Shown here: piece by piece, positions 21,235-38,641 of the stretch
How the letters are laid out: each line of letters opens with the position of its first letter
Numbering within the stretch: the stretch's first letter is position 1
Origin: Mycobacterium sp.
GTDB lineage: Bacteria; Actinomycetota; Actinomycetes; Mycobacteriales; Mycobacteriaceae
Length of the DNA stretch: 64,000 nt
Strand: one strand, 5' to 3'
Assembly (NCBI GenBank): GCA_032159565.1
Contig: JAVHWR010000038.1
Made by a program: the position numbers and the translations under genes
The notes under the pieces: model-generated
Database searches by the model: none
What the model was told of the DNA's origin: nothing
The model's input: only the letters and a program-made list of their open reading frames with translations

Positions 21235-21323
21235 CACCCCAGGCTCCCGTTTGGCGTCCAGCTGAGCTGGGTAGTTCATCGTCGTCATCTCTTGATGTTC
21301 ATGATCGACTTTGACTAGTGTCG

Positions 21324-21337
21324 GATTGTCAACAAAA
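21324..21337. promoter_or_regulatory. Putative GntR/FadR operator, copy 1 (upstream of MFS gene)
   Basis: GATTGTCAACAAAA; the core TTGTYRACAA recurs at 24203, 27158 and 31671. Confidence 0.65.
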
Positions 21338-21438
21338 CTACGACCTGACCCCGAGGCCGTGCACAACCTGCCCGTCGTGAGTGTGGGAGCCGGCCCGGGG
21401 AAGTGTCCGACAGTGTCATTGACACGAGGAGGCTCCCG

Positions 21439-22827
21439 ATGGGCAGCCCTGATCAACCTCCACACTCGACCGTCAGCACCGAAGACGTACCGCCCGATGT
21501 GCTGAAGAAGGCCGTCGCGGCCTCGGCCATCGGCAACGCGACGGAATGGTTCGACTACGGGATCTACGCATACGGCGTCACCTACATATCGGCGGCGATT
21601 TTCCCCGGGGACACCGAGAGCGCCACGTTGTTGGCGTTGATGACGTTCGCGGTGTCGTTCCTCGTCAGGCCTATCGGCGGGCTGGTATGGGGTCCGCTCG
21701 GCGACCGGATCGGGCGTCGGTCGGTGCTGGCCATCACGATCCTGATGATGTCCGGCGCCACGCTGTGCGTTGGTCTCATCCCGTCCTACGCGATGATCGG
21801 GTTCTGGGCGCCGGTGCTGATGGTGCTGCTGCGCATGATCCAGGGCTTCTCGACCGGCGGCGAGTACGGCGGTGCCGCCACCTTCATGGCGGAATACGCT
21901 CCGCCCCGCAGGCGCGGATTCTTCGGCAGCTTCCTGGAGTTCGGCACGCTGGCGGGGTTCTCGCTCGGTGCACTGCTGATGCTCGGTTTCTCGTTGGTGC
22001 TCAACGACGATCAGATGAGCACCTGGGGGTGGCGGCTGCCCTTCCTCGTTGCAGCCCCTCTCGGCCTGGTCGGTGTCTACCTGCGGTCGCGGCTGGAGGA
22101 CACACCGATCTTCCGCGAACTGGCAGAGTCCGGTGAAACGGAGGAGCGCACCGCCACCCAGTTCAAGGATCTGCTCAGCCGTTACTGGGGGCCGATCCTG
22201 CGGTTGGGCGGCGTTGTCGTCGCACTCAACGTGGTGAACTACACCCTGCTGAGCTATATGCCGACCTACCTCGAGCAGTCGATAGGCCTGTCCGCCACCA
22301 TGTCATTGTTGGTGCCGATCATCGGCATGCTCGCGATGATGGTGTTCCTGCCGATCGCAGGCGGCCTATCGGATCGCGTTGGGCGCAAACCGATGTGGTG
22401 GTTCTCGTTGATCGGCCTCTTCATCGCAGGCATCCCAATGTTCATGTTGATGGGCACCAACGTGGTGGGCGCGGTGATCGGTTTCGCGGTCCTCGGCCTG
22501 CTGTACGTGCCGCAACTAGCCACGATTTCGGCCATGTTCCCGGCCATGTTCCCCACCCATGTGCGCTACGCCGGATTCGCCATCGCGTACAACGTGTCGA
22601 CGTCGATCTTCGGCGGCACCGCGCCTGCGGTGAACGAATGGCTCGTCAACAAGACCGGCGACAATCTGGTGCCCGCCTATTACATGATGGCCGCGTGCGT
22701 CATCGGTGCGATCGCCCTGATCAAGGTGCCCGAGACGACACGCTGCCCGATGAACGGAACGGAGATGCCTGGCACCCCGGAGGCGCCGCCGCAGCTGGAA
22801 TACGAGAAGCAGCCCGGCGCCGTCTGA
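21439..22827 (+). CDS. MFS transporter, MHS/ProP-like
   Basis: IGNATEWFDYGIY, VRPIGG...GPLGDRIGRR, QGFSTGGEYGG and WGWRLPF; GAGGAGG SD. Confidence 0.92.
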   Translation: MGSPDQPPHSTVSTEDVPPDVLKKAVAASAIGNATEWFDYGIYAYGVTYISAAIFPGDTESATLLALMTFAVSFLVRPIGGLVWGPLGDRIGRRSVLAITILMMSGATLCVGLIPSYAMIGFWAPVLMVLLRMIQGFSTGGEYGGAATFMAEYAPPRRRGFFGSFLEFGTLAGFSLGALLMLGFSLVLNDDQMSTWGWRLPFLVAAPLGLVGVYLRSRLEDTPIFRELAESGETEERTATQFKDLLSRYWGPILRLGGVVVALNVVNYTLLSYMPTYLEQSIGLSATMSLLVPIIGMLAMMVFLPIAGGLSDRVGRKPMWWFSLIGLFIAGIPMFMLMGTNVVGAVIGFAVLGLLYVPQLATISAMFPAMFPTHVRYAGFAIAYNVSTSIFGGTAPAVNEWLVNKTGDNLVPAYYMMAACVIGAIALIKVPETTRCPMNGTEMPGTPEAPPQLEYEKQPGAV

Positions 22828-22835
22828 GAAGTTCC

Positions 22836-22897
22836 CGCGAACGTTCCGTACCGGTTCAGATTTTCGGCGAACTATCGCGGGTTGAGGAACGTTCGCG
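22836..22897. repeat. 62-nt palindromic (REP-like) element, copy 2
   Basis: Perfect 12-bp inverted repeat CGCGAACGTTCC/GGAACGTTCGCG; same length as copies 1 and 3; lies between convergent genes. Confidence 0.65.
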
Positions 22898-22908
22898 CGG
22901 GCTCGGGC

Positions 22909-24174
22909 TCACCCCGGGACGACGGCGCCGACGGCGTCGGCCCAGATGCTCGCGGCTTCGTCGACCTGATCACCGGTCACCACCAGTGCCGGGATGAAGC
23001 GCACGACCTGGCCCCACGCGCCACAGGTCAGCAACAGCAGGCCGCGGCGAGCCGCCTCCTGCTGGGCGGCGGCGGCGGTGACCGGATCGGGCTTTCCGTC
23101 GGCGTCACGGAACTCGTTGCCGATCATCAGCCCGAGGCCGCGTACGTCGGCGATCTGGTCGTGCTTGTCGGCCACCATTTGCAGCGCCTCCTTCAGCTGC
23201 GCCCCACGCTGCGCTGAGTTGTCGACGAGCCCTTCATCGCGGATTACGTCGAGGGTCGCCAGCGCGGCAGCACAGGCAACCGCGTTGGCGCCGTACGTGC
23301 CGCCCTGGGATCCCGGCCATGCCTTGGCCATCAGCTCAGACGACGCGGCGATTGCCGACAGCGGGAATCCGGAGGCAAGGCCCTTGGCGGTGATGAGGAC
23401 GTCGGGTTCGGCGTTGAAATGCTCACCGCCCCAGAACTTTCCGGTTCGTCCGAAGCCGGTCTGCACCTCGTCGACCACCAGCAGGATGCCGTGCTGGTCG
23501 GCGCGTTCCCGCAGTCCGGCGAAGAACCGGTCGTTGGCGGGCACATAGCCGCCCTCGCCGAGTACCGGCTCGACGAGGAACGCGGCGGTGTCGGCGGGCG
23601 ATGTCAGCGTCTGCAGGATGTAGTCGAGCTGGCCGAGCGCGAAATCGGTGGCCTGCTCGACCGGCCAGCCGAAGTGGGTGGGATCGGGGAACGGTGCGAC
23701 GTGGACGCCTGCCATCAACGGAGAGAAGCCGGAACGGAACTTCGTTCCGGACGTGGTCAGTGAAGCGGCCGCCACCGTGCGACCGTGGAAGCCGCCGTGG
23801 AAGACGATGACATTCGGCCGTCCGGTCGCCTGCCGGCTCAATCGCAGCGCCGCTTCGACGGCCTCACTGCCCGAGTTCGCGAAGAAGATGCGGTCCAAGC
23901 CCTGCGGCAGCACTTCGCCCAGCCGGTCAACGAGCGCCAGCAGCGGGCGGTGCATGACGGTGGTGTACTGGCCGTGGATGAGCGTGCCGACCTGGCGTTG
24001 TGCGGCCTCGACCACTCGAGGGTGACAGTGCCCGGTACTGGTCACGCCGATGCCCGCGGTGAAGTCGAGGTATCTGCGGTCGTCTTCGTCGTACAGCAGC
24101 ACACCCTCTCCGCGGGCAGCGATGACGCCGGTCGCTTGTTTGAGGACCTGTGAGAGCTGTGCGGACGCGGCCAC
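22909..24174 (-). CDS. Class III PLP aminotransferase (GabT/DoeD-like, diaminobutyrate or 4-aminobutyrate type)
   Basis: DFTAGIG, GFHGRT, VDEVQTGFGRTG, ITAKGL and GGTYG; GTG 24174 with a purine-rich SD. Confidence 0.92.
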   Translation of the reverse strand: MAASAQLSQVLKQATGVIAARGEGVLLYDEDDRRYLDFTAGIGVTSTGHCHPRVVEAAQRQVGTLIHGQYTTVMHRPLLALVDRLGEVLPQGLDRIFFANSGSEAVEAALRLSRQATGRPNVIVFHGGFHGRTVAAASLTTSGTKFRSGFSPLMAGVHVAPFPDPTHFGWPVEQATDFALGQLDYILQTLTSPADTAAFLVEPVLGEGGYVPANDRFFAGLRERADQHGILLVVDEVQTGFGRTGKFWGGEHFNAEPDVLITAKGLASGFPLSAIAASSELMAKAWPGSQGGTYGANAVACAAALATLDVIRDEGLVDNSAQRGAQLKEALQMVADKHDQIADVRGLGLMIGNEFRDADGKPDPVTAAAAQQEAARRGLLLLTCGAWGQVVRFIPALVVTGDQVDEAASIWADAVGAVVPG

Positions 24175-24202
24175 GCTTCTTTCCCTTGCCTGTTGATTGG
24201 TA

Positions 24203-24216
24203 GATTGTCGACAATC
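24203..24216. promoter_or_regulatory. Putative GntR/FadR operator, copy 2 (divergent promoter)
   Basis: Perfect palindrome GATTGTCGACAATC overlapping TANNNT -10 candidates on both strands. Confidence 0.8.
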
Positions 24217-24255
24217 AGCGTATCGGACGGACCGGCGTACGGCGAAGGGGTAGCG

Positions 24256-25722
24256 GTGAGCGAGCACGACGAGGCGAGGGTCGTCCAGACCGTCGAGAAG
24301 CGACTGTTCATCGACGGCAAGTGGCTCGACGCATCCGAGGGACGGACCTTCGACGTCGTCGATCCCGCCACCGGAAGGACCCTCTGTTCGGTCGCCGAGG
24401 CGTCCCCGGCAGACGGCAGGGCCGCACTCGACGCGGCCGTCGCCGCCCAGCCGGACTTCGCGGCGGTTTCACCACGCGAGCGCGCAAACATACTGACCCG
24501 CTCTTACGAGCTGCTGCACGAGCGGATCGACAACCTTGCGCTGTTGATGACGTTGGAGATGGGCAAACCGGTCGCCGAAGCACGAGGGGAGATCGCCTAT
24601 GCCGCAGAATTCTTCCGCCACTTCGCCGAAGAGGCCGTGCGCATCGACGGCGGTTACCAGACGGCGCCTGCAGGCGGAGCGCGCTTCCTGATCGCGCGCC
24701 AACCCGTCGGCCCGTGCCTGCTGATCACGCCGTGGAATTTCCCGATGGCGATGGGCACCCGCAAGCTGGGCCCGGCCATCGCCGCCGGGTGCACCAGTGT
24801 GATCAAGCCCGCTCCTCAGACACCGCTGTCGATGCTGGCGCTGATGGACATCCTGGCCGAGGCCGGGCTGCCCGCGGGCGTCGTCAACTGCATCACCGTC
24901 ACGGAAGCCGGCCCGGTCATGGAGCCGCTGATCCGGTCGGGCCTGGCCCGGAAACTCTCCTTCACCGGCTCCACCCAGGTCGGTCGGCTGCTGTTGGAAC
25001 AGTGCGCCGAGAAGGTCCTGCGGACCTCGATGGAACTCGGCGGGAACGCGCCGTTCATCGTGTTCGACGACGCCGACCTCGACGAGGCCGTCGAGGGTGC
25101 GATCGCGGCCAAGATGCGCAACATGGGGGAGGCGTGCACCGCGGCCAACAGGATGTATGTGCAATCCTCGGTCATCGATGAATTCGGACGCCGGCTGGCC
25201 GCGCGGATGGCTTCGTTGTCGGTGGGCCGTGGCACCAACGATGGTGTCGCCGTCGGTCCCCTCATCGATAAGGCCGCGCTCAACAAGGTCGAGACGCTCG
25301 TCGCCGATGCCGTCGGGCGCGGCGCGACCGTCCTCACCGGGGGATCGGCGCCCGGTGGCGATGGCTTCTTCTATCCGCCCACCGTGCTCACCGGTGTGCC
25401 ACGCGACGCCGAGATGTGCGATCAGGAGATCTTCGGTCCGGTGGCGCCGCTGACGGCCTTCGAGACGGAGGCCGAGGCGGTCGCGGCCGCCAACGACACC
25501 GAATACGGCCTTGTCTCCTACGTTTTCACCAACGACCTGAGGCGTGCATTGCGGGTTGCGGAAGCCCTGGAGAGCGGCATGGTCGGGCTCAACCAGGGCG
25601 TGGTGTCAAATCCGGCAGCGCCGTTCGGCGGCATCAAGCAGTCGGGTCTGGGCCGCGAAGGTGGCTTGGTCGGAATCGACGAGTTCCTCGAGACCAAATA
25701 CATCGGCATAGCGATGCGGTGA
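24256..25722 (+). CDS. NAD(P)-dependent semialdehyde dehydrogenase (GabD/DoeC-like)
   Basis: ITPWNFP, FTGSTQVG, MELGGNAP, catalytic GEAC, EIFGP and PFGGIKQSGLGREG. Confidence 0.93.
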   Translation: MSEHDEARVVQTVEKRLFIDGKWLDASEGRTFDVVDPATGRTLCSVAEASPADGRAALDAAVAAQPDFAAVSPRERANILTRSYELLHERIDNLALLMTLEMGKPVAEARGEIAYAAEFFRHFAEEAVRIDGGYQTAPAGGARFLIARQPVGPCLLITPWNFPMAMGTRKLGPAIAAGCTSVIKPAPQTPLSMLALMDILAEAGLPAGVVNCITVTEAGPVMEPLIRSGLARKLSFTGSTQVGRLLLEQCAEKVLRTSMELGGNAPFIVFDDADLDEAVEGAIAAKMRNMGEACTAANRMYVQSSVIDEFGRRLAARMASLSVGRGTNDGVAVGPLIDKAALNKVETLVADAVGRGATVLTGGSAPGGDGFFYPPTVLTGVPRDAEMCDQEIFGPVAPLTAFETEAEAVAAANDTEYGLVSYVFTNDLRRALRVAEALESGMVGLNQGVVSNPAAPFGGIKQSGLGREGGLVGIDEFLETKYIGIAMR

Positions 25723-25727
25723 CGCCC

Positions 25728-26405
25728 CTAGATGCCGACGTGTTCGGCTCCGTCGACTGTCTTTTCGAGCGTGAGCCGATTGACGGCATCGTCCATGTGG
25801 GCGGCCAGCAACCGGTCGACGAGTTCGCGGTCGCCTTTGCGGATCGCGTTCGCCAGCGCCCGGTGCTCCTTGTCGCGAACCTCGGATCTGGCGTAGGTCT
25901 CGTCGAGGGCATGGATGCACATCCGGGTTTCGGTGATGAAGGTCTGGTGCATCCGGGAGAGCCGCGGGCTCTTGGCGAGCTTCAACAGCCGCTCATGGAA
26001 GGCGATATCCAGCTCGCTGACATCGGCGGGAGTCTCTGCTTCGGCCATCTGGTCGACGATCCCCAGCAGCTCCTTGCCCGCCGTCCGGTGGTCACCGTCG
26101 AGGATTCTGCGGGCGGCCGCTCGTTCGATCGCTTCGCGCGCGCTGTACATGTCGCGGACGTCGTCGGGGGTCATGTCGATCACGAACAACCCGCGGTTGC
26201 GGATCGACACCAGGAGTCCCTCCTGGGTGAGGCGCTGCATGCCCTCCCGCAATGGGCCGCGGCTGACTCCGAGCTTGCGCGCCAACTCGGCTTCGCCCAA
26301 CTGTGCGCCGGGCTTCAGCTCGCCGTGAGCGATCGCCTGGCGCAGCTTCTCGGCGATGATGCTGGGCGTCGACTCCTGAACGAGCGGCCCGATGAAGCTG
26401 CTCAT
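25728..26405 (-). CDS. GntR-family regulator (FadR subfamily, FCD domain)
   Basis: GELKPGAQLGEAELARKLGVSRGPLRE HTH; ELDIAFHE and EHRAL FCD motifs; ATGA overlap with the upstream racemase gene. Confidence 0.93.
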   Translation of the reverse strand: MSSFIGPLVQESTPSIIAEKLRQAIAHGELKPGAQLGEAELARKLGVSRGPLREGMQRLTQEGLLVSIRNRGLFVIDMTPDDVRDMYSAREAIERAAARRILDGDHRTAGKELLGIVDQMAEAETPADVSELDIAFHERLLKLAKSPRLSRMHQTFITETRMCIHALDETYARSEVRDKEHRALANAIRKGDRELVDRLLAAHMDDAVNRLTLEKTVDGAEHVGI

Positions 26406-27121
26406 CGGCGCGCCTCGAACACCGCGCCCAGCCCGGGAAGCACCGGTGGGGAGCCGAGCAGTTCGAGTCCTTTCCACACGGTGACTTGGTTCGCCGTGAG
26501 CACGGGCTTGCCGACGGCCGCTTCCAGCTTGTCGACGATCGCCAGCGTGTGCATCGCGGTGTCCGGGACGAGCACTGCCTCGGCCCTCGGATGATCGGCG
26601 GCAGCCACCATCGCGAGCACCTGCTCGGGGCGAAGAGTGCCCACCTCGGCTGCGGTGTAAATGCCGTGGCTACCCATCGAGACAACCTCGGCGCCCCCTG
26701 CGGTCAGGAAGGCGACGAAGTGCTGCGCTACGTCGTCGGGGTAGGACGCCGCCACCGCGACCCGGCTGATGCCGAGATGCCGCAGCGCGTCGACGAAGGC
26801 GATCGAGGTCGACGACGCGGGGACCCCTGCCGCGGCCTCGACGGCCGACGCCTGCGCCGACGCGCCCTGCGGACCGAACACGAAGCTGCCCGAGGTGCAC
26901 GCCCACATCACGGCGTCCGGCTTCTCGACGGCCAACAGGGCCGCGCCGTCGGCGAGCCGTGCTTGGCTGCCGAGGTCGAGCAGGGCATCGACACGATGTG
27001 CGTCCTCGCCGACCGACGTGATCGCCACCGGCAAACGCACGGCGCCGTCGATGCGCGCCTCGAGGGCGGGAAAGTCGTCCTCGGCACTGTGGCCGGGGTA
27101 GAGCAGGCCAACCGTTGGCAT
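26402..27121 (-). CDS. Asp/Glu racemase / maleate isomerase superfamily protein (Cys/Asp variant)
   Basis: WACTSGSF, PASSTS, GKPVLTANQ; the second catalytic site reads PDTAM rather than SCTN. Confidence 0.85.
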   Translation of the reverse strand: MPTVGLLYPGHSAEDDFPALEARIDGAVRLPVAITSVGEDAHRVDALLDLGSQARLADGAALLAVEKPDAVMWACTSGSFVFGPQGASAQASAVEAAAGVPASSTSIAFVDALRHLGISRVAVAASYPDDVAQHFVAFLTAGGAEVVSMGSHGIYTAAEVGTLRPEQVLAMVAAADHPRAEAVLVPDTAMHTLAIVDKLEAAVGKPVLTANQVTVWKGLELLGSPPVLPGLGAVFEARR

Positions 27122-27157
27122 GTCATCTCCCTTGGATCACGCTGACCGGAATAGGTA

Positions 27158-27171
27158 GATTGTTGACAATG
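27158..27171. promoter_or_regulatory. Putative GntR/FadR operator, copy 3
   Basis: GATTGTTGACAATG, preceded by GGTA as in copy 2; overlaps a minus-strand TAACAT -10 (27169-27174). Confidence 0.78.
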
Positions 27172-27251
27172 TTAGCCCGCGCGAGCTACGACGCGGGACA
27201 CCTCGCCGAACTGCTCGCCGACGCTTCATCTCGGTAACCCCCTCCCGCCGT

Positions 27252-28526
27252 TCACGCGGACTTGTCAGGGGCCAACAGTCGTAGCGCCGTCAGCGTGTAG
27301 GTCCTGGCCGCAACGATCAATTCCTCGAGCGCCACTGACTCGTCGGGACGGTGCGCCTGCTCCGCGACCGATCCAGGCCCGAGGACGACCACCGGCACGT
27401 CGAGGTCGCGGGCGACGAACCCGCCGTCACACGCAGCGGTCCAACCGCCGGGCGCCAAGGTGGGCCCTCCCGCATCGGCGACTGCCGCGCCGACGGTGCG
27501 CGCCAGCGGCGACTCCGACGGCGTCTCGAAGGCCGGCATCTCCATCGGCATCGAGACCTCCACGGTCAGGCCGCGGTCGGCCAGACGCAGCGCCTCGATC
27601 CGCGCACGCAGGTCGTCGAGCACAGTCGCGGCCGACTCGCCCGGCAGGATCCGGCGATCGGCGACCACGGCGCATTCGGCAGGCACCACGCTGCCGCTGT
27701 TCCCACCCTTGATCTGGCCGACGCTCCACGTCGCGGGACCCAGCAAGGGGTGGGGACGGTCCGCCAGTTGGGCGTGCATGCGTTCGATCTCGGCCACCAC
27801 GGCGGCCGCGCCGTAGATTGCGTTGGCGCCATCGCCGGGATTGCCTGCGTGACAAGCAGTTCCGTGAACATGCACCCGCAGGTACGAGGCTCCGCGCGCG
27901 CCGACGATGGTCTGCAGGTCGGTGGGCTCGGCGGTGATGCATCCGGCGAACGACGCCTGTACCGAGGACACATAGGCGCGGATACCGGTCCCGTTCTCCT
28001 CTTCATCCACCAGTGCAGCCAGTTCGACGGGACCGCTCAAACCGGCGCCGCGAAGTGCCGCCATCGCCGAAACGCACGCTGCCAAACCACCTTTCATATC
28101 GGCGGCACCACGCCCGTATATGCGGCCGCCCTCGACGGCAGCGCCGAACGGGTCCTTCGTCCAGCCCTCGCCGACGGGAACGACGTCGGTGTGGCCGAGC
28201 AGCAGAAAACCAGGGCCCTCGCCTGGTGGCCCCGCCTGTCCCGCTCCTCGCGTGCGCCCTGCCTGTCCCGCTCCTCGCGTGCGCCCTGCCTGTCCCGCTC
28301 CTCGCGTGCGCAGTGTGACGCGCAGGTTGTTGCGGCCCGGCGTCACCGGCTCCTCATGAACGGCGAGCCCGAGTTCCGCGGCGGCTGCGGCGAGTACGGC
28401 GACCGTGGCCGCCTCCTCCCCGGGCGGGTTCTGCCCGTCGGCCCGCACCAACGACCGGGTCAGCTCGATCAGATGGTGCTCGTCGATCTTGTCCAGCACA
28501 GACCGTTCGGCGGCGGACACGCCCAT
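27252..28526 (-). CDS. M20 family (ArgE/DapE-like) metallo-deacylase
   Basis: GHTDVVP, GRGAADMKGG, VDEEE, AEPT and AHRPDE metal and catalytic motifs; ATG 28526. Confidence 0.92.
   Translation of the reverse strand: MGVSAAERSVLDKIDEHHLIELTRSLVRADGQNPPGEEAATVAVLAAAAAELGLAVHEEPVTPGRNNLRVTLRTRGAGQAGRTRGAGQAGRTRGAGQAGPPGEGPGFLLLGHTDVVPVGEGWTKDPFGAAVEGGRIYGRGAADMKGGLAACVSAMAALRGAGLSGPVELAALVDEEENGTGIRAYVSSVQASFAGCITAEPTDLQTIVGARGASYLRVHVHGTACHAGNPGDGANAIYGAAAVVAEIERMHAQLADRPHPLLGPATWSVGQIKGGNSGSVVPAECAVVADRRILPGESAATVLDDLRARIEALRLADRGLTVEVSMPMEMPAFETPSESPLARTVGAAVADAGGPTLAPGGWTAACDGGFVARDLDVPVVVLGPGSVAEQAHRPDESVALEELIVAARTYTLTALRLLAPDKSA
28234..28310. repeat. In-frame 27-nt tandem repeat (about 2.9 copies) inside the M20 gene
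   Basis: Unit GCCTGTCCCGCTCCTCGCGTGCGCCCT; encodes RTRGAGQAG x3 on the minus strand. Confidence 0.95.
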
Positions 28527-28531
28527 GCCGG

Positions 28532-29731
28532 TCAGCCCTTTGCGAGCAGATCGACGGCGCGGCGCAGCCGGGCGACCCCCTGGTGGATCCGGTCGGGCGG
28601 CGTCGAGGCGAAACACAGCCGCAGCGCATCACCGAACCGGCCGGACGGTGAGAACGCCGAGCCGGGGATGAACGCGACACCTTCGGCAAGGGCAGGCTCG
28701 AAAAGCGCTGCGCTGTCGACATTGTCGAGAGTGACCCAGCAGAAGAAGCCGCCTTGGGGATCAGTCCACCGGGCGCGGTCGCTGAAGTGTTCGCGTAACG
28801 CCGCGTGCATCGCCTCCTTGCGCCGCCGGTATTCGGCGCGCTGGGTCACCAGATGGTGGTCGAGATGTCCGCCGGTGAGAAAGCCCGCGAGCAGGCGTTG
28901 CGCAGGCAGGTTCGTGCACGTGTCCATCGCCTGCTTGGCGTTGATCAGCAGCGGCTGCAGCTCGGGAACGGTGTCGACCCAGCCGACCCGCAGCCCCGGC
29001 GCGACGATCTTCGAGAAGGTGCGGACCGCGAACACCAGCGGGTCGCCACCTCCGAGTTCGCGCAGCGTCGGCAGCGGCTCGCCCGCAAACCGCAACAAAC
29101 CGTAGGGGTCGTCGTCGATCACCATCGACCCCCATTCACGGGCAAGCTCGAGGAGCCGCAGCCGGCGCTCCAACGACAGCGTCACCCCCGAAGGGTTCTG
29201 GAAGGTCGGGATCGTATAGATCGCCTTGGGGGTGCGCCCGGCTTCGCCGACCAGGCGCTCGAGCTCGACGATGTCCATCCCGTCGTCGTCGACCGGGACC
29301 TCCAGCAGTGTCGCCCCGTAGGACAGAGCGGTCGCGCTGCCGTTGGTGTAGGTGGGCGATTCGACGGTGACGAGATCGCCTGGGTCGACGAAGATCTTGC
29401 AGAACAGATCGAGACCCTGCATGCCGCCCGCCGTGATCGTCAGGCGCTCGGCAGTGGTCTCATCGCTGGTTCCGCGCAGCATCTCCAGCAGCGCGGCGTG
29501 CAGCGGCGGATCGCCTTCCGTCGCGGCATAGTCATAGGCGTCGGGGGAACTCAGTTCGACGGCCGCGATGCCGGCCAGGATCTCCGACGGCACGGCCTCG
29601 GCCGCCGGACTGCCCATCGCGAGCCGGACCACGTCGTGCGATTGCTTCTGCAGCAGTGACGTGCTCGAGTCGATGACCGATCCGACCAGCCCGGCGGCGC
29701 GGGCGGCGAACGGAAGTGTGGATGTGGTCAC
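28532..29731 (-). CDS. Class I PLP aminotransferase (2-aminoadipate/MocR-like domain, no HTH)
   Basis: YTIPTFQNPSG, IDDDPY, TFSKIVAPGLRVGW and LRLCFA. Confidence 0.92.
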   Translation of the reverse strand: MTTSTLPFAARAAGLVGSVIDSSTSLLQKQSHDVVRLAMGSPAAEAVPSEILAGIAAVELSSPDAYDYAATEGDPPLHAALLEMLRGTSDETTAERLTITAGGMQGLDLFCKIFVDPGDLVTVESPTYTNGSATALSYGATLLEVPVDDDGMDIVELERLVGEAGRTPKAIYTIPTFQNPSGVTLSLERRLRLLELAREWGSMVIDDDPYGLLRFAGEPLPTLRELGGGDPLVFAVRTFSKIVAPGLRVGWVDTVPELQPLLINAKQAMDTCTNLPAQRLLAGFLTGGHLDHHLVTQRAEYRRRKEAMHAALREHFSDRARWTDPQGGFFCWVTLDNVDSAALFEPALAEGVAFIPGSAFSPSGRFGDALRLCFASTPPDRIHQGVARLRRAVDLLAKG

Positions 29732-29734
29732 GGG

Positions 29735-30907
29735 TTACCTCCAGACCGTGAGTTCCTGTGGCAGACCTGTCAGGCGCTCGGCGCCTGCGTCGGTGACCAC
29801 CACCGGCTCGGACAATTCGTAGCCCCAGTCGTCGTTCCAGATACCGAGAATGACGTGAAACGCCATGCCTGCGACGAGTTCGGTGGTCTCACCTGGGCGC
29901 AGGCTCACGGTTCGCTCACCCCAATCGGGCGGATACCCGATGCCGATCGAATAGCCGATCCGGGACTCCTTCTGCAGCCCATGGGGTTTGATCACCCGGT
30001 CGAACGCCCGATGCACGGCGCTGCCGTCCGCGCCGGGCCGGATGGCCGTCAGCGTGGCTTCCATGGCATCGGCGACCACCTTCGCGGTGTCGGTGAGCCG
30101 GGACGGCGGTTCACCGAGCATCACTGTTCGCGCCAGCGGCGCGTGGTAGCGGCCGAACACTCCGGCCAGCTCGATCGTGGTGGCTTCGCCGAGTTGAAAG
30201 GTGTGTTCGGACCAGGTCAGATGAGGGGTGCCTGCGGCCTTTCCGGTCGGCAGCATCGGAACAACCGCCGGGTAGTCACCGCCGTGCTCGGCTGTGCCGC
30301 AGGCCTGCGCCGCCATGATCTCGGCGACGACATCGCATTGCCGCCTGCCTGGGCGTACCCCCTCGCACGCGGCGCGCATCGCCTTTTCGGCAATCGTGCC
30401 CGCTATACGCAACTGCTGTATCTCGAAGGCGGACTTGACGACTCGTACCCAGTTGACCAACTCGCCTGCGTCGACCAGCCGGTTTGAGTGCAGTCCGTGC
30501 TCCAACGCCTGATACCCGCGTGGAGAGAAGAAGTGCGAGTCGGCTTCGACGCCGACTGCTTCGCCCGCGGGTACGAGCCCGCGTACCTCTTCGGCGATCC
30601 AGTCGAACGGATGCACATCCCGCCGGTGCACCAACTCTTCGGGGTATCCGTGGATGTGGTCATCGTGGAGGTTGGCGGTGAAGCCCGCGCCTGCGGCGTC
30701 CATCGCCCTGGTGAACAGATGCGGCGGGCCGTCGGCGCCGACCAGCAAGCACTGCGGCGTGTAGAACGACCATGCGTTGTAGCCGGTGAGATAGAACAGA
30801 TTCGCCGGATCGCACACGATCAGAGCGGCAAAGTCCTTCTGCGCCATGGCTTCCCGCACACACCCCAACCGGTCGGTGTACTCCACGTTGATCGCACCGT
30901 CCGGCAT
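29735..30907 (-). CDS. Ectoine hydrolase EutD/DoeA-like (M24 pita-bread fold)
   Basis: LTGYNAWSFY, VNWVRVVKS, GGDYPAVVPMLPTG, PHLTW, IELAG, RYHAPLART and GYPPDWGERTVSLRP closely match recalled EutD/DoeA motifs. Alternative start GTG 30913. Confidence 0.85.
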   Translation of the reverse strand: MPDGAINVEYTDRLGCVREAMAQKDFAALIVCDPANLFYLTGYNAWSFYTPQCLLVGADGPPHLFTRAMDAAGAGFTANLHDDHIHGYPEELVHRRDVHPFDWIAEEVRGLVPAGEAVGVEADSHFFSPRGYQALEHGLHSNRLVDAGELVNWVRVVKSAFEIQQLRIAGTIAEKAMRAACEGVRPGRRQCDVVAEIMAAQACGTAEHGGDYPAVVPMLPTGKAAGTPHLTWSEHTFQLGEATTIELAGVFGRYHAPLARTVMLGEPPSRLTDTAKVVADAMEATLTAIRPGADGSAVHRAFDRVIKPHGLQKESRIGYSIGIGYPPDWGERTVSLRPGETTELVAGMAFHVILGIWNDDWGYELSEPVVVTDAGAERLTGLPQELTVWR

Positions 30908-30909
30908 CT

Positions 30910-31632
30910 TCACCGCTCCAGCAGCTGCTGGCCGGGGCCGACCGCCTTGCGCCCGAGGACGCGTAGCGCCGACCACACGGTCACCTGGTTGGCGGTCAGC
31001 ACCGGTTTGCCCAGCTCGCGTTCCAGCGTCGCGATGACGTCATAGGTCGGCAGATTGGTGCAGCTGATGAAGACGGCCTGCGCATCGGCGTTGTCGGTGT
31101 CGCGCACGAGCCCGGCGGTGACGTCGTAGGGCACCGTCCAGATGTCGGAGGTCAATCCCAGTCCTGCGGCGGCGACCACCTCGATCCCGGCTTCGGCCAG
31201 GTAGGCGGTCAGGCCCACGGTCAGCTCGGCGATGTAGGGCGTGACGGTGGCGATGTGGGCGATGTCGAGGTGGTGCAGCGCCTCCAGCAGCGCGCCGCTG
31301 GTTGTCACGGCTGCGGGCGCACCGGCCTCCGTCATGGCGGCCACCAATGCGGCCTGACCCTCGAGGCCGCCGATGAAGCTGCCCGATGTGCACGCATACG
31401 CCATCACCAGCGGCGAGACCGCGCGAACGTCGTCGAACCCCTTGGCGACCAGGGCCGGGTCGGAGATGTGCACAGCCATTTCGAGCGTCGCAGGCATCGG
31501 CGCATACGCCATGCGGGTGATGTGCAGGCTGACGTCGTCGGGCATCCATCGCCAGAGCTCCCTGTCGAGCGCGAAGTCGAACGGTGTGACGACTCCTATC
31601 CCGGCTTGCTCGACCGACGGGGAATGGCCCAT
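30910..31632 (-). CDS. Asp/Glu racemase / maleate isomerase superfamily protein (Cys/Cys, EutA-like)
   Basis: YACTSGSF and ISCTNL both retain Cys; GKPVLTANQ. Confidence 0.88.
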   Translation of the reverse strand: MGHSPSVEQAGIGVVTPFDFALDRELWRWMPDDVSLHITRMAYAPMPATLEMAVHISDPALVAKGFDDVRAVSPLVMAYACTSGSFIGGLEGQAALVAAMTEAGAPAAVTTSGALLEALHHLDIAHIATVTPYIAELTVGLTAYLAEAGIEVVAAAGLGLTSDIWTVPYDVTAGLVRDTDNADAQAVFISCTNLPTYDVIATLERELGKPVLTANQVTVWSALRVLGRKAVGPGQQLLER

Positions 31633-31670
31633 GGCCCCAGTCTGGGGGGACGGTGTGGCGACCGCAAGCC

Positions 31671-31684
31671 GATTGTTGACAATC
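31671..31684. promoter_or_regulatory. Putative GntR/FadR operator, copy 4 (divergent promoter)
   Basis: GATTGTTGACAATC contains TTGACA (31676-81), with TAGCCT at 31700-05 on the plus strand and TACGAT on the minus strand. Confidence 0.8.
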
Positions 31685-31712
31685 GTACGGTTTCGTTCCT
31701 AGCCTCGGACCC

Positions 31713-32750
31713 GTGCCTCGAACACGACCGGTTGTCGCGGTCCTGTGCGAGAAGGCGACCGACCGTCCACCCGGTCTCGACGGCCTCGAGGTGGAGTTCC
31801 GCTACTGCGCGGCCGACGGCTTGGCAGACGCTGTCCACGGGGCGCAGGCACTCTTGCTCTGGGACTTCTTCTCGAAGGCCGTGAGCGACGTCTGGGCCGA
31901 GGCCGACCAGCTCGAGTGGATCCACATCACCGCCGCGGGCGTTGACACCCTTCTGTTCGATGAGCTACGGAACTCCGACGTCGTGGTGACCAACGCGCGC
32001 GGAATATTCGACCGGCCGCTGGCCGAATACGTGCTCGGCGCCGTGATCGCCAACGCCAAGGACAGCTTGACGAGCTTCGACCTGCAGCGCCGCCATGAGT
32101 GGCGGCACCGCGAAACCCGCAGCATCACCGGCGCCACTGCTCTGGTGGTGGGTACTGGCGGCATCGGGCGCGAAATCGCGAAGCTGCTGCGGGCGGCAGG
32201 CATGGTCGTTCGGGGCGCAGGCCGCCGTGCCGTCGCAGACGACCCCGACTTCGGCGAGATCGTCGACAGCGCCGACCTGGCGGCGGAAGCGGGCTGGTGC
32301 GATCACCTGATCCTGGCCGCGCCGCTGACCGCAGCGACGCGTGGCCTCGTCGACGCGCGCGTTCTATCTGCCATGAAGCCCGACGCGCATCTGGTCAACA
32401 TCGCCAGGGGGCCGATGGTCGACGAGGTCGCTTTGCTGGACGCGCTGACACAGGGAAGCATCGGCGGGGCGACCCTCGACGTGTTCGACACCGAACCGCT
32501 GCCTGCCGGTCACCCGTTGTGGGACGCGCCGAATGTGACGGTCACCGCGCACATGTCGGCCGACGCCGTCGGCTGGCGCGAGACCCTCGCCAGCCAGTTC
32601 GCGACGAACGTCCGGCACTGGCTGGCCGGCGAGCCGATGATCAATGTGGTGGACAAGAAGCTCGGGTACGTGTCCGGAGCCGGAGGGCCGGCGACATCAA
32701 GACCCGGAGCCGGAGGGCCGGCGACATCAGGACCCGGAGCCGCGCGATGA
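31713..32750 (+). CDS. D-2-hydroxyacid dehydrogenase family protein
   Basis: TAAGVD, TNARG, VVGTGGIG, VNIARG, DVFDTEP and TAHMS (Arg/Glu/His triad). Confidence 0.93.
   Translation: MPRTRPVVAVLCEKATDRPPGLDGLEVEFRYCAADGLADAVHGAQALLLWDFFSKAVSDVWAEADQLEWIHITAAGVDTLLFDELRNSDVVVTNARGIFDRPLAEYVLGAVIANAKDSLTSFDLQRRHEWRHRETRSITGATALVVGTGGIGREIAKLLRAAGMVVRGAGRRAVADDPDFGEIVDSADLAAEAGWCDHLILAAPLTAATRGLVDARVLSAMKPDAHLVNIARGPMVDEVALLDALTQGSIGGATLDVFDTEPLPAGHPLWDAPNVTVTAHMSADAVGWRETLASQFATNVRHWLAGEPMINVVDKKLGYVSGAGGPATSRPGAGGPATSGPGAAR
32674..32742. repeat. In-frame 30-nt tandem repeat at the dehydrogenase C-terminus
   Basis: CCGGAGCCGGAGGGCCGGCGACATCARGAC x2 plus a partial copy; encodes GAGGPATSRP/GAGGPATSGP. 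Confidence 0.92.
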
Positions 32751-34153
32751 TCGCGTCGGCGACGGAACTGGTCGAGGGCTACCGGAAAAAGACGATCTCG
32801 CCCGTCGAGGCGGCGGAGGCCGCGCTGAAGGCCATCGACACCTACGACGGCCGGGTGAACGCCTTCGTCCTGGTCGATCGCGACGGCGCACTGGCCGCCG
32901 CGAAGGATTCGGAGGAGCGTTGGCAGTCCGGGGAGCCGCTTGGACCCGGCGACGGTGTGCCGACCTCGATCAAGGACGCGTTGTGGACGCGCGGATGGCC
33001 GACGCTGCGCGGCAGCGAACTGATCGATGCGGCGGGACCGTGGGACGAGGATGCGCCGTGTGTGGCGCGGCTGCGCGAGACGGGCGCCGTCATCCTCGGC
33101 AAGACCACGACGCCGGAGTACTCGTGGAAGGGAGTCACCGACTCCCGACGACACGGCGTAACGGGTAACCCGTGGGATCCGGCGATGACGTCAGGTGGAT
33201 CCAGCGGAGGCAGCGCTACGGCGGTGGGGCTTGGCATGGGCCCGTGGTCGGTCGGTACGGACGGCGGCGGGTCGGTTCGCATCCCTGCGGGGTTCACCGG
33301 AACGGTCGCGCTGAAGCCGACATACGGCCTGATTCCGTTTTATCCGCCGAGCCCGTTCGGCACGCTGTCGCACGCCGGGCCGATGACCCGGACCGTGCGG
33401 GACGCCGCCGCTCTGATGGACGTGATCACCGGATTCGACGCGCGCGACTGGGCGGCCATGCCGACGCCGGTGACATCGTTCCTGTCTGGACTCGACGACG
33501 GGGTGGCCGGACTGCGCGTCGGTTACTCATCCGATCTCGGCTTCGTCCGAAACGATCCTGAGGTCGATGTCGCCGTCCGCGCAGCCGTCGACGTCCTGGC
33601 GAGCGCCGGGGCCGAGGTGGAGGAGGTCGACCCGGGGTTCAGCGACCCGGTGGATGCCTTCCACGTCCTGTGGTTCGCCGGCGAGGCCAAGGTGTTGTCG
33701 TCCTACGGGGCCATCGACGACCTCGCCGACCGGATCGATACCGGACTGCACCGCACCGCGCTGATCGGATTGCGCTACTCGGCGTCGGACTATTTGGACG
33801 CCATGGCGGTCCGGATGTCGCTGGGCGGGCTGATGGGGCGGTTCCACCAGCGCTACGACGTGCTCGTGACGCCGACGCTGCCGCTGCCCGCGTTCCCCGT
33901 CGGCATAGATGTGCCGGGTGGGTCGGTGTCGCCGGACTGGACGAGTTGGACGCCGTACACCTACCCCTTCAACCTGACACAGCAGCCCGCGCTCAGCGTG
34001 CCGTGCGGGTTCACCGGCGCCGGATTGCCGATCGGATTGCAGATCGTCGGCGCCCGGCACACCGACGCACTGGTGTTGCGTGTTGGCCAGGCCTACCAGT
34101 CAGCGACCGACTGGCACCAGCGCACACCGGCACTTCTGGCCGAGGAGGTTTGA
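32747..34153 (+). CDS. Amidase signature family enzyme
   Basis: GVPTSIKD, GKTTTPE, GGSSGGS, GTDGGGSVRIPA; ATGA overlap. Confidence 0.94.
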   Translation: MIASATELVEGYRKKTISPVEAAEAALKAIDTYDGRVNAFVLVDRDGALAAAKDSEERWQSGEPLGPGDGVPTSIKDALWTRGWPTLRGSELIDAAGPWDEDAPCVARLRETGAVILGKTTTPEYSWKGVTDSRRHGVTGNPWDPAMTSGGSSGGSATAVGLGMGPWSVGTDGGGSVRIPAGFTGTVALKPTYGLIPFYPPSPFGTLSHAGPMTRTVRDAAALMDVITGFDARDWAAMPTPVTSFLSGLDDGVAGLRVGYSSDLGFVRNDPEVDVAVRAAVDVLASAGAEVEEVDPGFSDPVDAFHVLWFAGEAKVLSSYGAIDDLADRIDTGLHRTALIGLRYSASDYLDAMAVRMSLGGLMGRFHQRYDVLVTPTLPLPAFPVGIDVPGGSVSPDWTSWTPYTYPFNLTQQPALSVPCGFTGAGLPIGLQIVGARHTDALVLRVGQAYQSATDWHQRTPALLAEEV

Positions 34154-34154
34154 G

Positions 34155-34655
34155 ATGAGCAGGTTGATCACGGTGTCGCTGGACAAGCGCGGAGTGAGTT
34201 GCGTTGCCCGGATGCTCGACGACGAGGCACCCCGGACCAGCGCCGCGGTGTGGGACGCGCTTCCGCTGTCGGCGCCGGTGTTTCACGGCAAGTACGCCAG
34301 AAACGAGATCTACACGCTGCTGCCTGCGTTCGCGGCCGCCGACCCCGGGAAGGAGAACACCACGATCACGCCGATTCCGGGCGACCTGTGCTGGTTCTCG
34401 TTCGACTCCGATGTCCTCGGCAATCCGGCGTACGGCTACGAAAACACCACCGGCACAGGGACAACCGGTGCCATCGTCGACCTTGCGTTGTTTTACGGGC
34501 GGAACAACCTATTGATCAACGGGGACCAGGGCTGGGTGCCTGGCAATGTCTTCGGCGCGGTGGTCGAGGGACTCGACGAGATGGCTGAGGCGTGCCAGGA
34601 CCTGTGGATGGGCGGCGCACGCGGCGAGACACTGAGCTTTCAGCGCCGCGACTGA
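34155..34655 (+). CDS. DUF3830-like (cyclophilin-like fold) protein
   Basis: 166 aa; APRTSAAVWDALP, HGKYARNEIY, ENTTITPIPGDL and LFYGRNN. Family recognised from memory. Confidence 0.78.
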   Translation: MSRLITVSLDKRGVSCVARMLDDEAPRTSAAVWDALPLSAPVFHGKYARNEIYTLLPAFAAADPGKENTTITPIPGDLCWFSFDSDVLGNPAYGYENTTGTGTTGAIVDLALFYGRNNLLINGDQGWVPGNVFGAVVEGLDEMAEACQDLWMGGARGETLSFQRRD

Positions 34656-34815: not shown

Positions 34816-35715
34816 CTAGCGCTTGATCGCGCTCAGGTAGCTCATTTCGGTGAAGAAGCCGATGGCTCCGTCCTCGGGAAACTCGAAACCGTTGTCGGCA
34901 TATGCATCCGCCATCTTTCGCGCCGACACATCCCAGCCGTGACCCTTGAGGTACTCGATGACGTCATTGCGTTTCTCGTGATAGATGAGGTCGCCCATCT
35001 CGAAGTCGTGGCCGTACTGCTTCAGCCGATCCGAGATCAGCTGCGACCGCTCGTCGGAGAACATGCTGACATCGGGGATGTGCTCGGTGGCCAGCCGACT
35101 GCCCGGCGCACTGAGCTCGTCGATCCTGTCGAACAACAGGTCCTGGGCCTCCGACGGAAGATAGATGAGCAGGCCCTCGGCAATCCATGCGGTGGGCTGC
35201 GACGGGTCGAAGCCGTTGTCCCGCAATGCTTTCGGCCAGTCGTCGCGAAGGTCGATCGCGACGGTGCGTCGGTCGGCCGTTGGCTGCGCGCCGAGGTCGG
35301 CGAGCGTCGTGGACTTGAAGTCGATCACCTCCGGTTGATCGACCTCGAACACTGTCGTTTCGTCCGGCCACGGCAATCGATAGGCCCGAGCGTCCAAGCC
35401 CGCCGCCAGAATCACCGCCTGACGTACCCCTGCAGCCGCCGCATCGGTGAACAACCTGTCGAAATGGCGGGTGCGGACCGCCATGCCCTCTGCGGCGCGC
35501 TGAATGTTGAATCGCGGATCGATGTCCTCCAGCGTGATCTCGCCGTCAAGCGCCTTAGTGAAGACGTCCAGGCCGACCGCACGCACTAACGGCTCGGCGT
35601 ACGGATCGTCGATCAACCCCTCGCGATCGGCCAGCACGCGCTGCGCGGCCACCATCGTGGCGGTGGCGCCGACGCTGGACGCGAGATCCCACGAGTCGTT
35701 GTCGGTGCGGGCCAT
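34816..35715 (-). CDS. SAM-dependent methyltransferase, mycobacterial LCM-like family (Rv0726c/Rv0731c type), copy 1
   Basis: [50 protein letters not shown] and EGLLIY. Confidence 0.93.
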   Translation of the reverse strand: MARTDNDSWDLASSVGATATMVAAQRVLADREGLIDDPYAEPLVRAVGLDVFTKALDGEITLEDIDPRFNIQRAAEGMAVRTRHFDRLFTDAAAAGVRQAVILAAGLDARAYRLPWPDETTVFEVDQPEVIDFKSTTLADLGAQPTADRRTVAIDLRDDWPKALRDNGFDPSQPTAWIAEGLLIYLPSEAQDLLFDRIDELSAPGSRLATEHIPDVSMFSDERSQLISDRLKQYGHDFEMGDLIYHEKRNDVIEYLKGHGWDVSARKMADAYADNGFEFPEDGAIGFFTEMSYLSAIKR

Positions 35716-35723
35716 CATGCTCC

Positions 35724-36617
35724 TTACAGGGTTGCCGTGAGGTAGCCGGAGTCGCCGATGAACCTGATGAGCTCGTCGTCCGGCACCTCGAAACCGTTGG
35801 CGGCGAACGCCTCCGCGGTTGAGATAGTAGACACTTGCCAGCGGTGCGAGGACAGGTATTCACGGGCCGTATTGCGGTCGCCTGAGTAGAACAACTCCGA
35901 CAACTTGATGTCCGAGCCGGCCCGACGCGATCGTTCGTCCAGCTTTTCTGTCCAGTCAGCCGGCATGGACGTCATGTCCATGTGTTCGGTGGCCAACCGA
36001 CTGCCAGGGGCGGACAGCGCGGTGACGTTGTCCAGGAGACAATCCTGCGCATCCGGTGGCAGATAGACCAAAAGGCCCTCGGCGATCCACGCGGTGGGCC
36101 GGGTCGGGTCGAAGCCCGCCTCGCGTAATGCGGCCGGCCAATCGTCGCGCAGGTCGATGGCGACCGTCTTGCGGGTGGCTCTCGGAAGCGCACCGAGGCC
36201 GTCGAGCGTCGTTGTCTTGAACTCGATGACTTGCGGTTGATCGACTTCGAAGACCACCGTGCCCGCCGGCCATGGAAGCCGGTAGCCGCGGGTGTCCAGT
36301 CCCGCCGCCAGAATCACCGCCTGCCGAATCCCGGCTTCGGAAGCGGCAAGGAAGAAGTCATCGAAAAACCGTGTCCTGACCGCGATCTGCTCACTCATCG
36401 CCTTGCGGTTCATCACCGGGTTGCCGTTGAACGCCTCGCCGTCGACGATCCTGATGAAACTGTCCACGCCGACCGCGCGGACCAGCGGCTCGGCGAACGG
36501 ATCGTCGAGTAGCGGGTCGGGCCCCCGAGAGGCCACCGCTCGAGAGGCCGCCACAGCGGTGGCGGTAGCGCCAACGCTCGAGGCCAGGTCCCAGGTGTCG
36601 TTGTCTGTTCGTGCCAT
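35724..36617 (-). CDS. SAM-dependent methyltransferase, same family, copy 2
   Basis: Same motif set ([21 protein letters not shown]). Confidence 0.93.
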
Positions 36618-36624
36618 CGAATGC

Positions 36625-37644
36625 CTACTGTCGTGTCGCGGTGACGGCCAGCGAATCTCGCATCGGTGCGAGGTCGTCGCCGTCGGGGAATTTACGGCCG
36701 TACGTCTCGAACATCTCGGGCCGGGCGCGCGCAGTCACCTGCCACCCTTGTCCGGCCAGGTAATCGACGACCGGATTGCGCTCGCCCGGGTAGAAGAGGT
36801 CGGCGAGGTTGATGTCGAACCCGTGTTTTTTCCACCGCTCGCCGATCGCCTGTGCGCGCTCACCGATGCTCGCCCCCGGATTGGGGTGATACTCGGTGGC
36901 CAGCCTGCTGCCCGGGGCGCTGAGCGCGGTGATGTCGTCGAACAGCCGGTCCTGAGCCTCCGGAGGCAGGTACACCAGAAGCCCTTCGGCGATCCATGCC
37001 GTCGGCCGAGTGTCGTCGAATCCGTTGCGCCGCAATGCGGCAGGCCAATCGTCGCGTAGATCGATGCTCACGGTGCGGCGCTCCGCGGTGGGCGCCGCAC
37101 CGATCGACGACATCGTCGCGTTCTTGAACTCGATCACCTTCGGCTGGTCGATCTCGTAGACGACGGTGCCTGCGGGCCAGTCCAGGCGGTATGCGCGGGC
37201 ATCGAGGCCCGACGCGAGGATCACCGCCTGGCTCGGGCCGGCGGATGCCGTGCCTGATGTCGCCGCCGGAGCGGCTCCGGGGCCTGATGCCGCCGCCGGA
37301 GCGGCTCCGGGGCCTGATGTCGCCGCCGGAGCGGCTCTGGGGCCTGATGCCGCCGCCGGAGCGGCTCCGGTGAAGAAGTCGTCGAAGAACCGGGTCCGCA
37401 CCGCCATCACGTCGACCATCAGCCGGGTCGCGTCAGCGCCTTCGCCCTCGACCAAACCGATCTCGCCGTCGAGCAGACGGTTGAAGAAGTCTAATCCGAC
37501 GGCGCGCACCAACGGCTCAGCGAACGGGTCATCGATGATCGCGTGCGGTTCCTTGCTGGCGATCGCCCGCGCCGCGGCGACCATCGTGGCGGTCGCGCCG
37601 ACGCTGGACGCGATGTCCCAGCTGTCGGCGTCGGCTCGTGTCAT
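36625..37644 (-). CDS. SAM-dependent methyltransferase, same family, copy 3 (with repeat insertion)
   Basis: Same motifs; about 40 extra low-complexity residues between FFDDFF and [10 protein letters not shown]. Confidence 0.92.
37252..37370. repeat. In-frame 30-nt tandem repeat, four copies
   Basis: Unit GCCTGATGYCGCCGCCGGAGCGGCTCYGGG with T/C alternating between copies; encodes GAAPAA(A/T)SG(P/T)-type units. Confidence 0.95.
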
Positions 37645-37648
37645 GGTT

Positions 37649-37711
37649 TCATTCCTCGGCTCCCGCTCGCTCCGGTCCTCGCTTCGCCGCGATCCTCACT
37701 CGCACTCCCTT
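37649..37711 (-). repeat. MIRU-like intergenic unit carrying a mini-ORF
   Basis: AAGGGA SD, then GTG...GAA TGA (MRIAAKRGPERAGAEE), ending 4 nt before the next ATG. Confidence 0.55.
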
Positions 37712-38641
37712 TCAGTGATTGCCGAAGGTGCCGCTGATGTAACGCAAATCGGCGAACGGGGTGTCGCCGTCGAACGGCGGAAAGCCGTTGGCGGTCAGCA
37801 GCTCATTGACGTTGCTGCCGTCGGTGTTCCAGCCGCGCTCGGTGAGATAGGCGGCCGGCTCGTTGCGGTCGCCGAGGTAGACGAGGTTGGCCCAGTCGAG
37901 GTCATAGCCGTGCTCCCGCCACCGCTCGGCAGCCGTCTGCATCTTCTTCATCGCCTCGTCGGCGTCGTCCTGATTGATAGGTGGTGTGCTTTCGGTGGCC
38001 AACCAGCTTCCCGGCGCACTCAACTCGGTCATGGTGTCCAGCAGTCGGTCCTGGGCATCGGGAGGCAGATAACCGAGGAGTCCTTCAGCGCTCCACGCCG
38101 TCGGCTGGTCGGGGTCGAATCCGGCCTCCTTGAGCGCGGCAGGCCAGTCGAAGCGCAGATCGATCGCCACGACCCGGCGGTCGCAGGTCGGCTCGGCGCC
38201 GATCTCGGCGAGCGCCCGCGTCTTGAACGCGATCACCTCGGGCTGGTCCACCTCGTAGACGACGGTGCCCGCGGGCCACTGCAACCGGTACGCGCGCGAA
38301 TCCAGGCCGGACGCGAGGATCACCACCTGCCGGACGCCCGCCACCGTCGCGTCGGTGAAGAAGTCGTCGAAGAACTTCGTCCGGACCGCCATGTTGTCGA
38401 CCATGCGATCCATCCCGGCGTTCGTGTCGTCATCGATGTTGAACACCGAGGGGTCCAGCTCGCCAGTGGCCAGCCGGGTGAACACGTCGACGCCGACGGC
38501 CCGCACCAGGGGTTCGGCGTAGGGGTCGCTGATCAACGCGCCGTCGATCCTGGTCCCCATCGCGCGGGCGGCCGCCACCATCGTCGCCGTCGCTCCCACG
38601 CTGGAGGCCAGATCCCAGGTGTCGTTGTCTGTCCGTGCCAT
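37712..38641 (-). CDS. SAM-dependent methyltransferase, same family, copy 4
   Basis: Same motifs; divergent from secY like Rv0731c. Confidence 0.93.

Follow-up and report, generated by a model that had tools for sequence, protein, structure and literature searches.

A near-invariant 14-bp palindrome as the likely operator of an FCD-type GntR regulator in a mycobacterial catabolic cluster

The operators of the FadR subfamily of GntR regulators are A/T-rich palindromes built of TKGT/ACMA boxes with 2–3 nt between GT and AC, and the 2-nt spacing occurs in some groups, namely GntR, PrpR, HpxS, and UxuR (PMC4494728). In a 64,000-nucleotide stretch of DNA from Mycobacterium sp. (contig JAVHWR010000038.1; hereafter the window), a cluster of 12 genes contains one GntR-family regulator gene at 25728-26405 and four copies of a 14-bp palindrome, GATTGTYRACAATC, with the pattern ATTGT-YR-ACAAT and a 2-nt centre. 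Judged from sequence and position, it is highly likely that this palindrome is the operator of the local GntR, which would act as the repressor of all six predicted transcription units of the cluster, including its own. The motif fits the TKGT/ACMA class with the 2-nt centre, in agreement with the initial annotation, which had assigned it to the FadR-subfamily palindromes.

The GntR protein consists of a winged helix-turn-helix at its N-terminus (wHTH; PF00392, 61.4 bits against a cut-off of 27) and a C-terminal all-helical FCD domain (PF07729, 69.6 bits against a cut-off of 24.3), the same arrangement as in the Bacillus subtilis GntR, PrpR/PmiR, HpxS, HypR, MdcY, and UxuR groups (PMC4494728). 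The palindrome, like those of the 2-nt-centre groups, is rich in A/T, contains TKGT/ACMA boxes, and has a 2-nt gap from GT to AC. Furthermore, as for other FadR-subfamily repressors, the sites are situated in divergent promoters beside the regulator gene, in an autoregulatory layout with local catabolic targets, and occur at the promoters of both its own and the neighbouring operons. However, neither the target genes nor the presumed effector are those of the 2-nt-centre groups, and the similarity is distant. The closest solved structures are 7xp0/7xp1 (‘probable transcriptional regulator’), followed by 2hs5 (‘putative transcriptional regulator GntR’); the profile of the orthologues matches 7xp0 at 111 bits, and 7xp0 and 2hs5 are both FCD regulators. 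We take 7xp0/7xp1 to be the Pseudomonas aeruginosa regulator PmiR, and 2hs5 presumably derives from Rhodococcus. Among the orthologues, the wHTH residues S48, R49, G50, P51, R53, E54, R69, R71, and G72 are invariant, and such invariance of the DNA-reading residues fits an invariant operator. Simultaneously, D133, H137, H181, and H203 are invariant, presumably in keeping with a metal site in the FCD domain. Neither this orthologous group nor the GATTGTYRACAATC motif was found in the searchable literature, where motif strings returned only primers and unrelated matches.

The motif, written as GATTGTYRACAAWN, starts at 21324, 24203, 27158, and 31671, exactly at the coordinates that the initial annotation had given, and no further copy exists in the window:

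21324-21337, no strand, operator O1, GATTGTCAACAAAA, with an imperfect right half, 5′ of the gene of the major facilitator superfamily (MFS) transporter
24203-24216, no strand, operator O2, GATTGTCGACAATC, a perfect palindrome, located between the genes of the class-III aminotransferase (AT-III) and the aldehyde dehydrogenase (ALDH), which diverge from this 81-bp gap
27158-27171, no strand, operator O3, GATTGTTGACAATG, 5′ of the EutA-like 1–GntR operon, the putative autoregulatory site
31671-31684, no strand, operator O4, GATTGTTGACAATC, between the divergent operons led by EutA-like 2 and by the D-2-hydroxyacid dehydrogenase (HADH)

Dinucleotide-preserving shuffles of the window yielded no match, and the core ATTGTNNACAAT, with up to one mismatch allowed, returned the same four sites only in the 64 kb, with 0.35 expected. 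The genome-wide scan proposed earlier was performed on the 6.24-Mb genome (66% G+C) and placed the four sites at ranks 1–4 with 21.6–25.7 bits, scores that are partly circular since the weight matrix was built from these sites. The exact 12-mer core occurs in four copies in the genome, three of them within the cluster, with approximately 0.1 expected from a composition estimate.

Below the four sites, ranks 5 and 6 score 21.2 bits (contig C18) and 20.9 bits (contig C96), and the remainder reach at most 18.5 bits, including a match at C151:56446 with 16.1 bits. The match at C18:68864 is located within a PadR-like coding sequence and was judged to be a chance occurrence. The one at C96:11488, CATTGTCAACAAAC, lies approximately 68 bp 5′ of a Liv-type ABC transporter operon, and homology to a congeneric genome (L168) starts right at the motif; this site could represent a distal regulon member.

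The link of the palindrome to the local GntR, as proposed in the initial annotation, is strong and is backed by its distribution. The exact 13-mer GATTGTYRACAAT is present in 106 of 201 family genomes, usually in 2–4 copies within about 15 kb, while the reversed control pattern occurs in about four of the 201. A GntR orthologue (E <= 1e-30) is encoded in 99 of these genomes, and the 13-mer is found in all 99 of them, against 7 of the 102 genomes lacking the orthologue (Fisher p = 2e-49). In 108 of 111 actinobacterial loci, with more than 10 operon compositions among them, an operator lies ahead of the operon to which the GntR gene belongs, and of 255 exact cores in 118 loci, only three are situated within a recognised coding sequence. 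A wider scan with the orthologue profile, limited to one genome per species, gave 80 loci with GntR identities of 47–76%, spanning Mycobacteriales, Pseudonocardiales, Propionibacteriales, Streptosporangiales, and Micrococcales, with the genera Mycobacterium/Mycolicibacterium, Kribbella, Nonomuraea, Arthrobacter, Kocuria, Gordonia, Dietzia, Nocardia, Amycolatopsis, Saccharomonospora, and others. In nearly all of these loci the same 14-mer is situated 5′ of the same gene families in varied gene order, and in nearly all the sites lie less than 10 kb from the GntR gene.

Two side observations concern this spread. With 76% identity for GntR and about 80% for the other genes, the cluster of Kribbella sp. 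CA-245084 (locus L089) resembles that of the window to the same degree as the mycobacterial clusters do, which suggests horizontal transfer between orders; this locus also contains many extra motif copies with one mismatch. One congeneric genome (G306, locus L177) has two further sites, GATTGTCAACAATT and AATTGTTGACAATT, at C1:133346 and C1:137364, 4 kb apart and away from the main cluster, which may belong to a paralogous regulon.

The gene map agrees with the 12 genes and six transcription units counted in the initial annotation. The units comprise MFS; AT-III; ALDH; EutA-like 1–GntR; EutA-like 2–M24–aminotransferase–M20; and HADH–amidase–DUF3830:

21439-22827, plus strand, MFS metabolite:H+ symporter, ProP-like (ProP model 428 bits, below the cut-off of 544)
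22909-24174, minus strand, class-III (omega) aminotransferase, AT-III, with a GTG start at 24174
24256-25722, plus strand, ALDH, similar to succinate-semialdehyde dehydrogenase
25728-26405, minus strand, GntR-family regulator of 225 aa with FCD domain (FadR subfamily), proposed as the repressor
26402-27121, minus strand, EutA-like 1, arylmalonate decarboxylase/Asp-Glu racemase superfamily (TIGR02990, 109 bits, below the cut-off of 318)
27252-28526, minus strand, M20 ArgE/DapE-type deacylase
28532-29731, minus strand, class I/II aminotransferase
29735-30907, minus strand, M24 DoeA-like hydrolase (TIGR02993, 404.5 bits, below the cut-off of 613)
30910-31632, minus strand, EutA-like 2, the first gene of the operon 27252-31632
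31713-32750, plus strand, HADH, the first gene of the operon 31713-34655
about 32807-34153 (start not fixed), plus strand, amidase-signature amidase
34155-34655, plus strand, DUF3830 protein

EutA-like 1 leads the GntR operon, and its stop codon overlaps the GntR start as ATGA. All four sites are intergenic; they fill every gap of the cluster in which a promoter is required, four in number and two of them divergent, with one copy per promoter region as described earlier. The gene order is mycobacterial: rplO and sppA lie on one side of the cluster, four LCM-type methyltransferase genes and then secY on the other, and the cluster is an insertion into the conserved rplO–sppA ... secY region. The four tandem genes of the LCM (leucine carboxyl methyltransferase) family occupy 34816-38674 on the minus strand. 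An Rfam scan of the cluster gave no match.

Within the genus, the M24 gene was found in 16 of the 401 genomes searched, including the genome of the window, and the 15 relatives share 67–84% identity. In the 15 congeneric clusters (18-kb regions around the M24 gene), the motif keeps its place in the gaps, and alignments of the four intergenic regions display the 14-mer as an invariant block amid diverged flanks, together with conserved TAnnnT boxes. Conservation in these alignments is also the basis of the −10 and −35 assignments, by which each site overlaps a predicted −35 box, a −10 box, or a likely transcription start, as the initial annotation had proposed for the −10 and −35 candidates. 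At O1, the candidate −10 box TAGTGT (21316-21321) ends 2 nt 5′ of the operator, with the candidate −35 box TTGATG at 21292-21297. At O2, which is kept in 15 of 15 aligned relatives, the candidate −10 box of ALDH, TAGATT (24201-24206), overlaps the operator, and that of AT-III, TACGCT (minus strand, 24222-24217), abuts it. O3 is retained in 17 of 17 aligned relatives, and in all 17 a candidate −10 box, TAnCAT (27174-27169, minus strand), overlaps its end. In the case of O4, the predicted −35 box TTGACA (31676-31681) of the HADH promoter is contained in the operator; a spacer of 18 nt separates it from the −10 box TAGCCT (31700-31705), and 7 nt further downstream lies the GTG start codon at 31713. 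Both O4 and this layout, which predicts a leaderless HADH mRNA, are conserved in 21 of 21 relatives.

The imperfect site of the MFS gene, ATTGTCAACAAA, is retained in imperfect form 5′ of the MFS gene in relatives, and such a weaker conserved half-site could leave basal uptake for induction. In the same leader, a 13-bp palindrome, GTGTCATTGACAC, is located at 21413-21425, 1 nt 5′ of the MFS Shine-Dalgarno sequence; it is unique in the genome, kept in three of four relatives, and could be the site of a second regulator. The leader has no Rfam match, and its predicted fold is no better than that of shuffled sequences (z = −0.75).

The O3 region also retains the trace of a lost gene. At 27169-27237 on the plus strand, 22 codons (MLARASYDAGHLAELLADASSR*) are left of a gene for an FAD/Fe-S oxidase of YdiJ/GlcD-GlcF-like type, their ATG formed by the final three nucleotides of O3; the remainder of the gene is deleted in the window. 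Most relatives have an intact oxidase gene of about 950 codons at the same place, divergent from EutA-like 1–GntR, whose ATG is likewise formed by the last three bases of the operator, and a TAGATT box overlaps the operator at this gene as well. Since the oxidase gene is deleted in the window and full in the relatives, O3 is the relic of a divergent promoter pair.

From this arrangement, a simple mechanism can be proposed. A GntR dimer would occupy a single operator per promoter-bearing gap, four in all, thereby reaching all six units and 12 genes, and the bound protein would block RNA polymerase wherever the operator overlaps a promoter box or the start. The EutA-like 1–GntR operon would be repressed in the same manner. 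A small molecule, either the substrate or an intermediate of the pathway, is expected to bind the FCD domain and release GntR from the DNA. The repressor role is read from the operators themselves, because each overlaps a −35 box, a −10 box, or a transcription start; the initial annotation's proposal that GntR represses every unit including its own is supported, while contact of the protein with the DNA, the direction of control, the promoter boxes, and the effector are inferred.

Three points weigh against this mechanism. A scan with an E. coli-type sigma-70 model predicted no promoter in the cluster, so that the −10 and −35 calls depend on conservation alone; such a blank is expected for mycobacterial promoters with a −10 box only and is uninformative. 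A site overlapping a −35 box could equally serve a class II activator. In addition, the 7 genomes mentioned above contain the 13-mer with no detectable GntR orthologue.

The second point leads to the best-surviving alternative, in which GntR binds the sites but is an activator or a dual regulator at some promoters such as that of HADH. There, the operator centre lies near −35.5, as in a class II activator site, and E. coli FadR is a known dual regulator. However, the HADH promoter combines a perfect TTGACA with a TAnnnT −10 box, for which an activator is unnecessary, and the five remaining promoters have their −10 box or start covered by the operator, as expected of a repressor site. Catabolic regulators of the FadR subfamily are mostly repressors (PMC4494728), and the alternative is considered improbable. 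More doubtful still is that another transcription factor reads the palindrome and GntR targets something else. The 7 genomes of the third point would suit such a factor, but the motif accompanies every GntR orthologue of the family survey, precedes the GntR operon in nearly every locus, and matches the FadR-family consensus, and domain and family scans of the cluster proteins revealed no second regulator gene, conserved or otherwise. The weakest alternative, which is very unlikely, regards the motif chiefly as a −35 promoter element (TTGACA plus flanks) of co-expressed genes with no dedicated regulator, as TTGACA on one strand in three of the four sites and the TG orientation toward HADH in 64 of 85 cases might suggest, but the half-site beyond the −35 box is conserved just as well as its partner, many variants have a CG centre (TCGACA), the site lies at the −10 box or the start rather than the −35 box at most promoters, and the motif is tightly tied to the presence of GntR. 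Repression by the local GntR through GATTGTYRACAATC therefore stays the preferred reading, and the cluster is very probably governed by a local repressor/operator system of the conventional FadR type, which acts on an uncharacterised pathway and whose conservation across Actinomycetota is unusually high.

The compound degraded by this pathway can be approached by comparison with the proteobacterial ectoine/hydroxyectoine system. In the published view, ectoine consumers are confined to Proteobacteria and governed by EnuR and AsnC (PMC5924519). The cluster resembles the system controlled by EnuR and AsnC/DoeX (PMC5924519) in its DoeA/EutD-like hydrolase, EutA-like proteins, omega-transaminase, aldehyde dehydrogenase, and putative uptake system, and the enzyme set permits hydrolase, deacylase, transaminase, and aldehyde dehydrogenase steps. 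Moreover, the same operator controls, by position, EhuABC-type transporters in other actinobacteria. There are nevertheless clear differences. The regulator possesses an FCD domain instead of the aminotransferase-like, pyridoxal phosphate-binding domain found in EnuR, which is a MocR/GabR-type regulator, and it scores 25.8 bits with the EhuR model, below the cut-off of 480. The cluster has no AsnC/DoeX gene. None of the 12 genes encodes a deacetylase of the DoeB/EutE family (succinylglutamate desuccinylase/aspartoacylase family), and the M20 ArgE/DapE-type deacylase is present instead. The M24 protein falls below the cut-offs of the DoeA/EutD models (TIGR02993, 404.5 against 613; NF038259, 185.5 against 575), which makes it a relative and not an equivalog, and the EutA-like proteins are likewise below the equivalog cut-off. 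Identity with the proteobacterial Doe/Eut system was rejected on account of the regulator type, the missing DoeB, and the DoeA and EutA scores below the cut-offs.

A link to ectoine, which the initial annotation had implied in its choice of effectors, is upheld in part. In its favour are the ProP-like MFS protein, which scores below its model cut-off and is the one uptake candidate of the window, and the operator-controlled operons of other actinobacterial loci, in which EhuB reaches 218–279 bits (cut-off 190.9) in 5 of 6 tested, EhuC 282 bits (cut-off 197), and EhuA 359 bits (cut-off 345), all of them NCBIfam equivalogs; such EhuB/EhuC/EhuA equivalogs lie behind the operator at loci L095, L102, L106, L121, and L158. 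A few loci also contain a tartrate-dehydrogenase-like gene. The DoeA-like part of the link has fared less well. The M24 gene is present in 37 of the 201 family genomes, two congeneric clusters (L078 and L079) lack the M24–aminotransferase–M20 genes, and the conserved core of the regulon contains no DoeA-like gene; by this distribution, the DoeA-like/M20/aminotransferase operon is an accessory module of a wider conserved regulon.

If ectoine were the substrate, the core of the pathway would consist of the EutA-like pair, the amidase-signature amidase, the DUF3830 protein, the D-2-hydroxyacid dehydrogenase, the YdiJ-like FAD/Fe-S oxidase, the omega-transaminase, and the aldehyde dehydrogenase; DoeA and DoeB would not belong to it, and the DoeA-like/aminotransferase/M20 operon would be an add-on. 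Among the top-ranked literature matches, no paper treats DUF3830 and ectoine together. A search of the genome for EctC (PF06339) gave no match, yet the control genomes gave none either, so that absence does not follow. Ectoine-related effectors are plausible. Tentatively, and without quite favouring it over other substrates, we suggest that the pair of GATTGTYRACAATC and FCD-type GntR might mark an undescribed catabolic regulon for ectoine/5-hydroxyectoine-type solutes across Actinomycetota.

The operator provides a sequence-level definition of the regulon and ties 12 genes to one function, among them those of the two EutA-like proteins and of the DUF3830 protein, whose role is obscure; to this set the relatives add the FAD/Fe-S oxidase and Ehu-type transporters. 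Being near-invariant across several actinobacterial orders, the 14-mer is usable as a genomic tag for all genes of the pathway, and the compact repressor/operator pair is a candidate inducible switch for mycobacteria. The regulation itself is conventional, and the main interest lies in the compound that the pathway degrades. If the ectoine assignment is true, ectoine consumers would extend beyond Proteobacteria, contrary to the published view (PMC5924519), with an FCD-type repressor in the place of EnuR.

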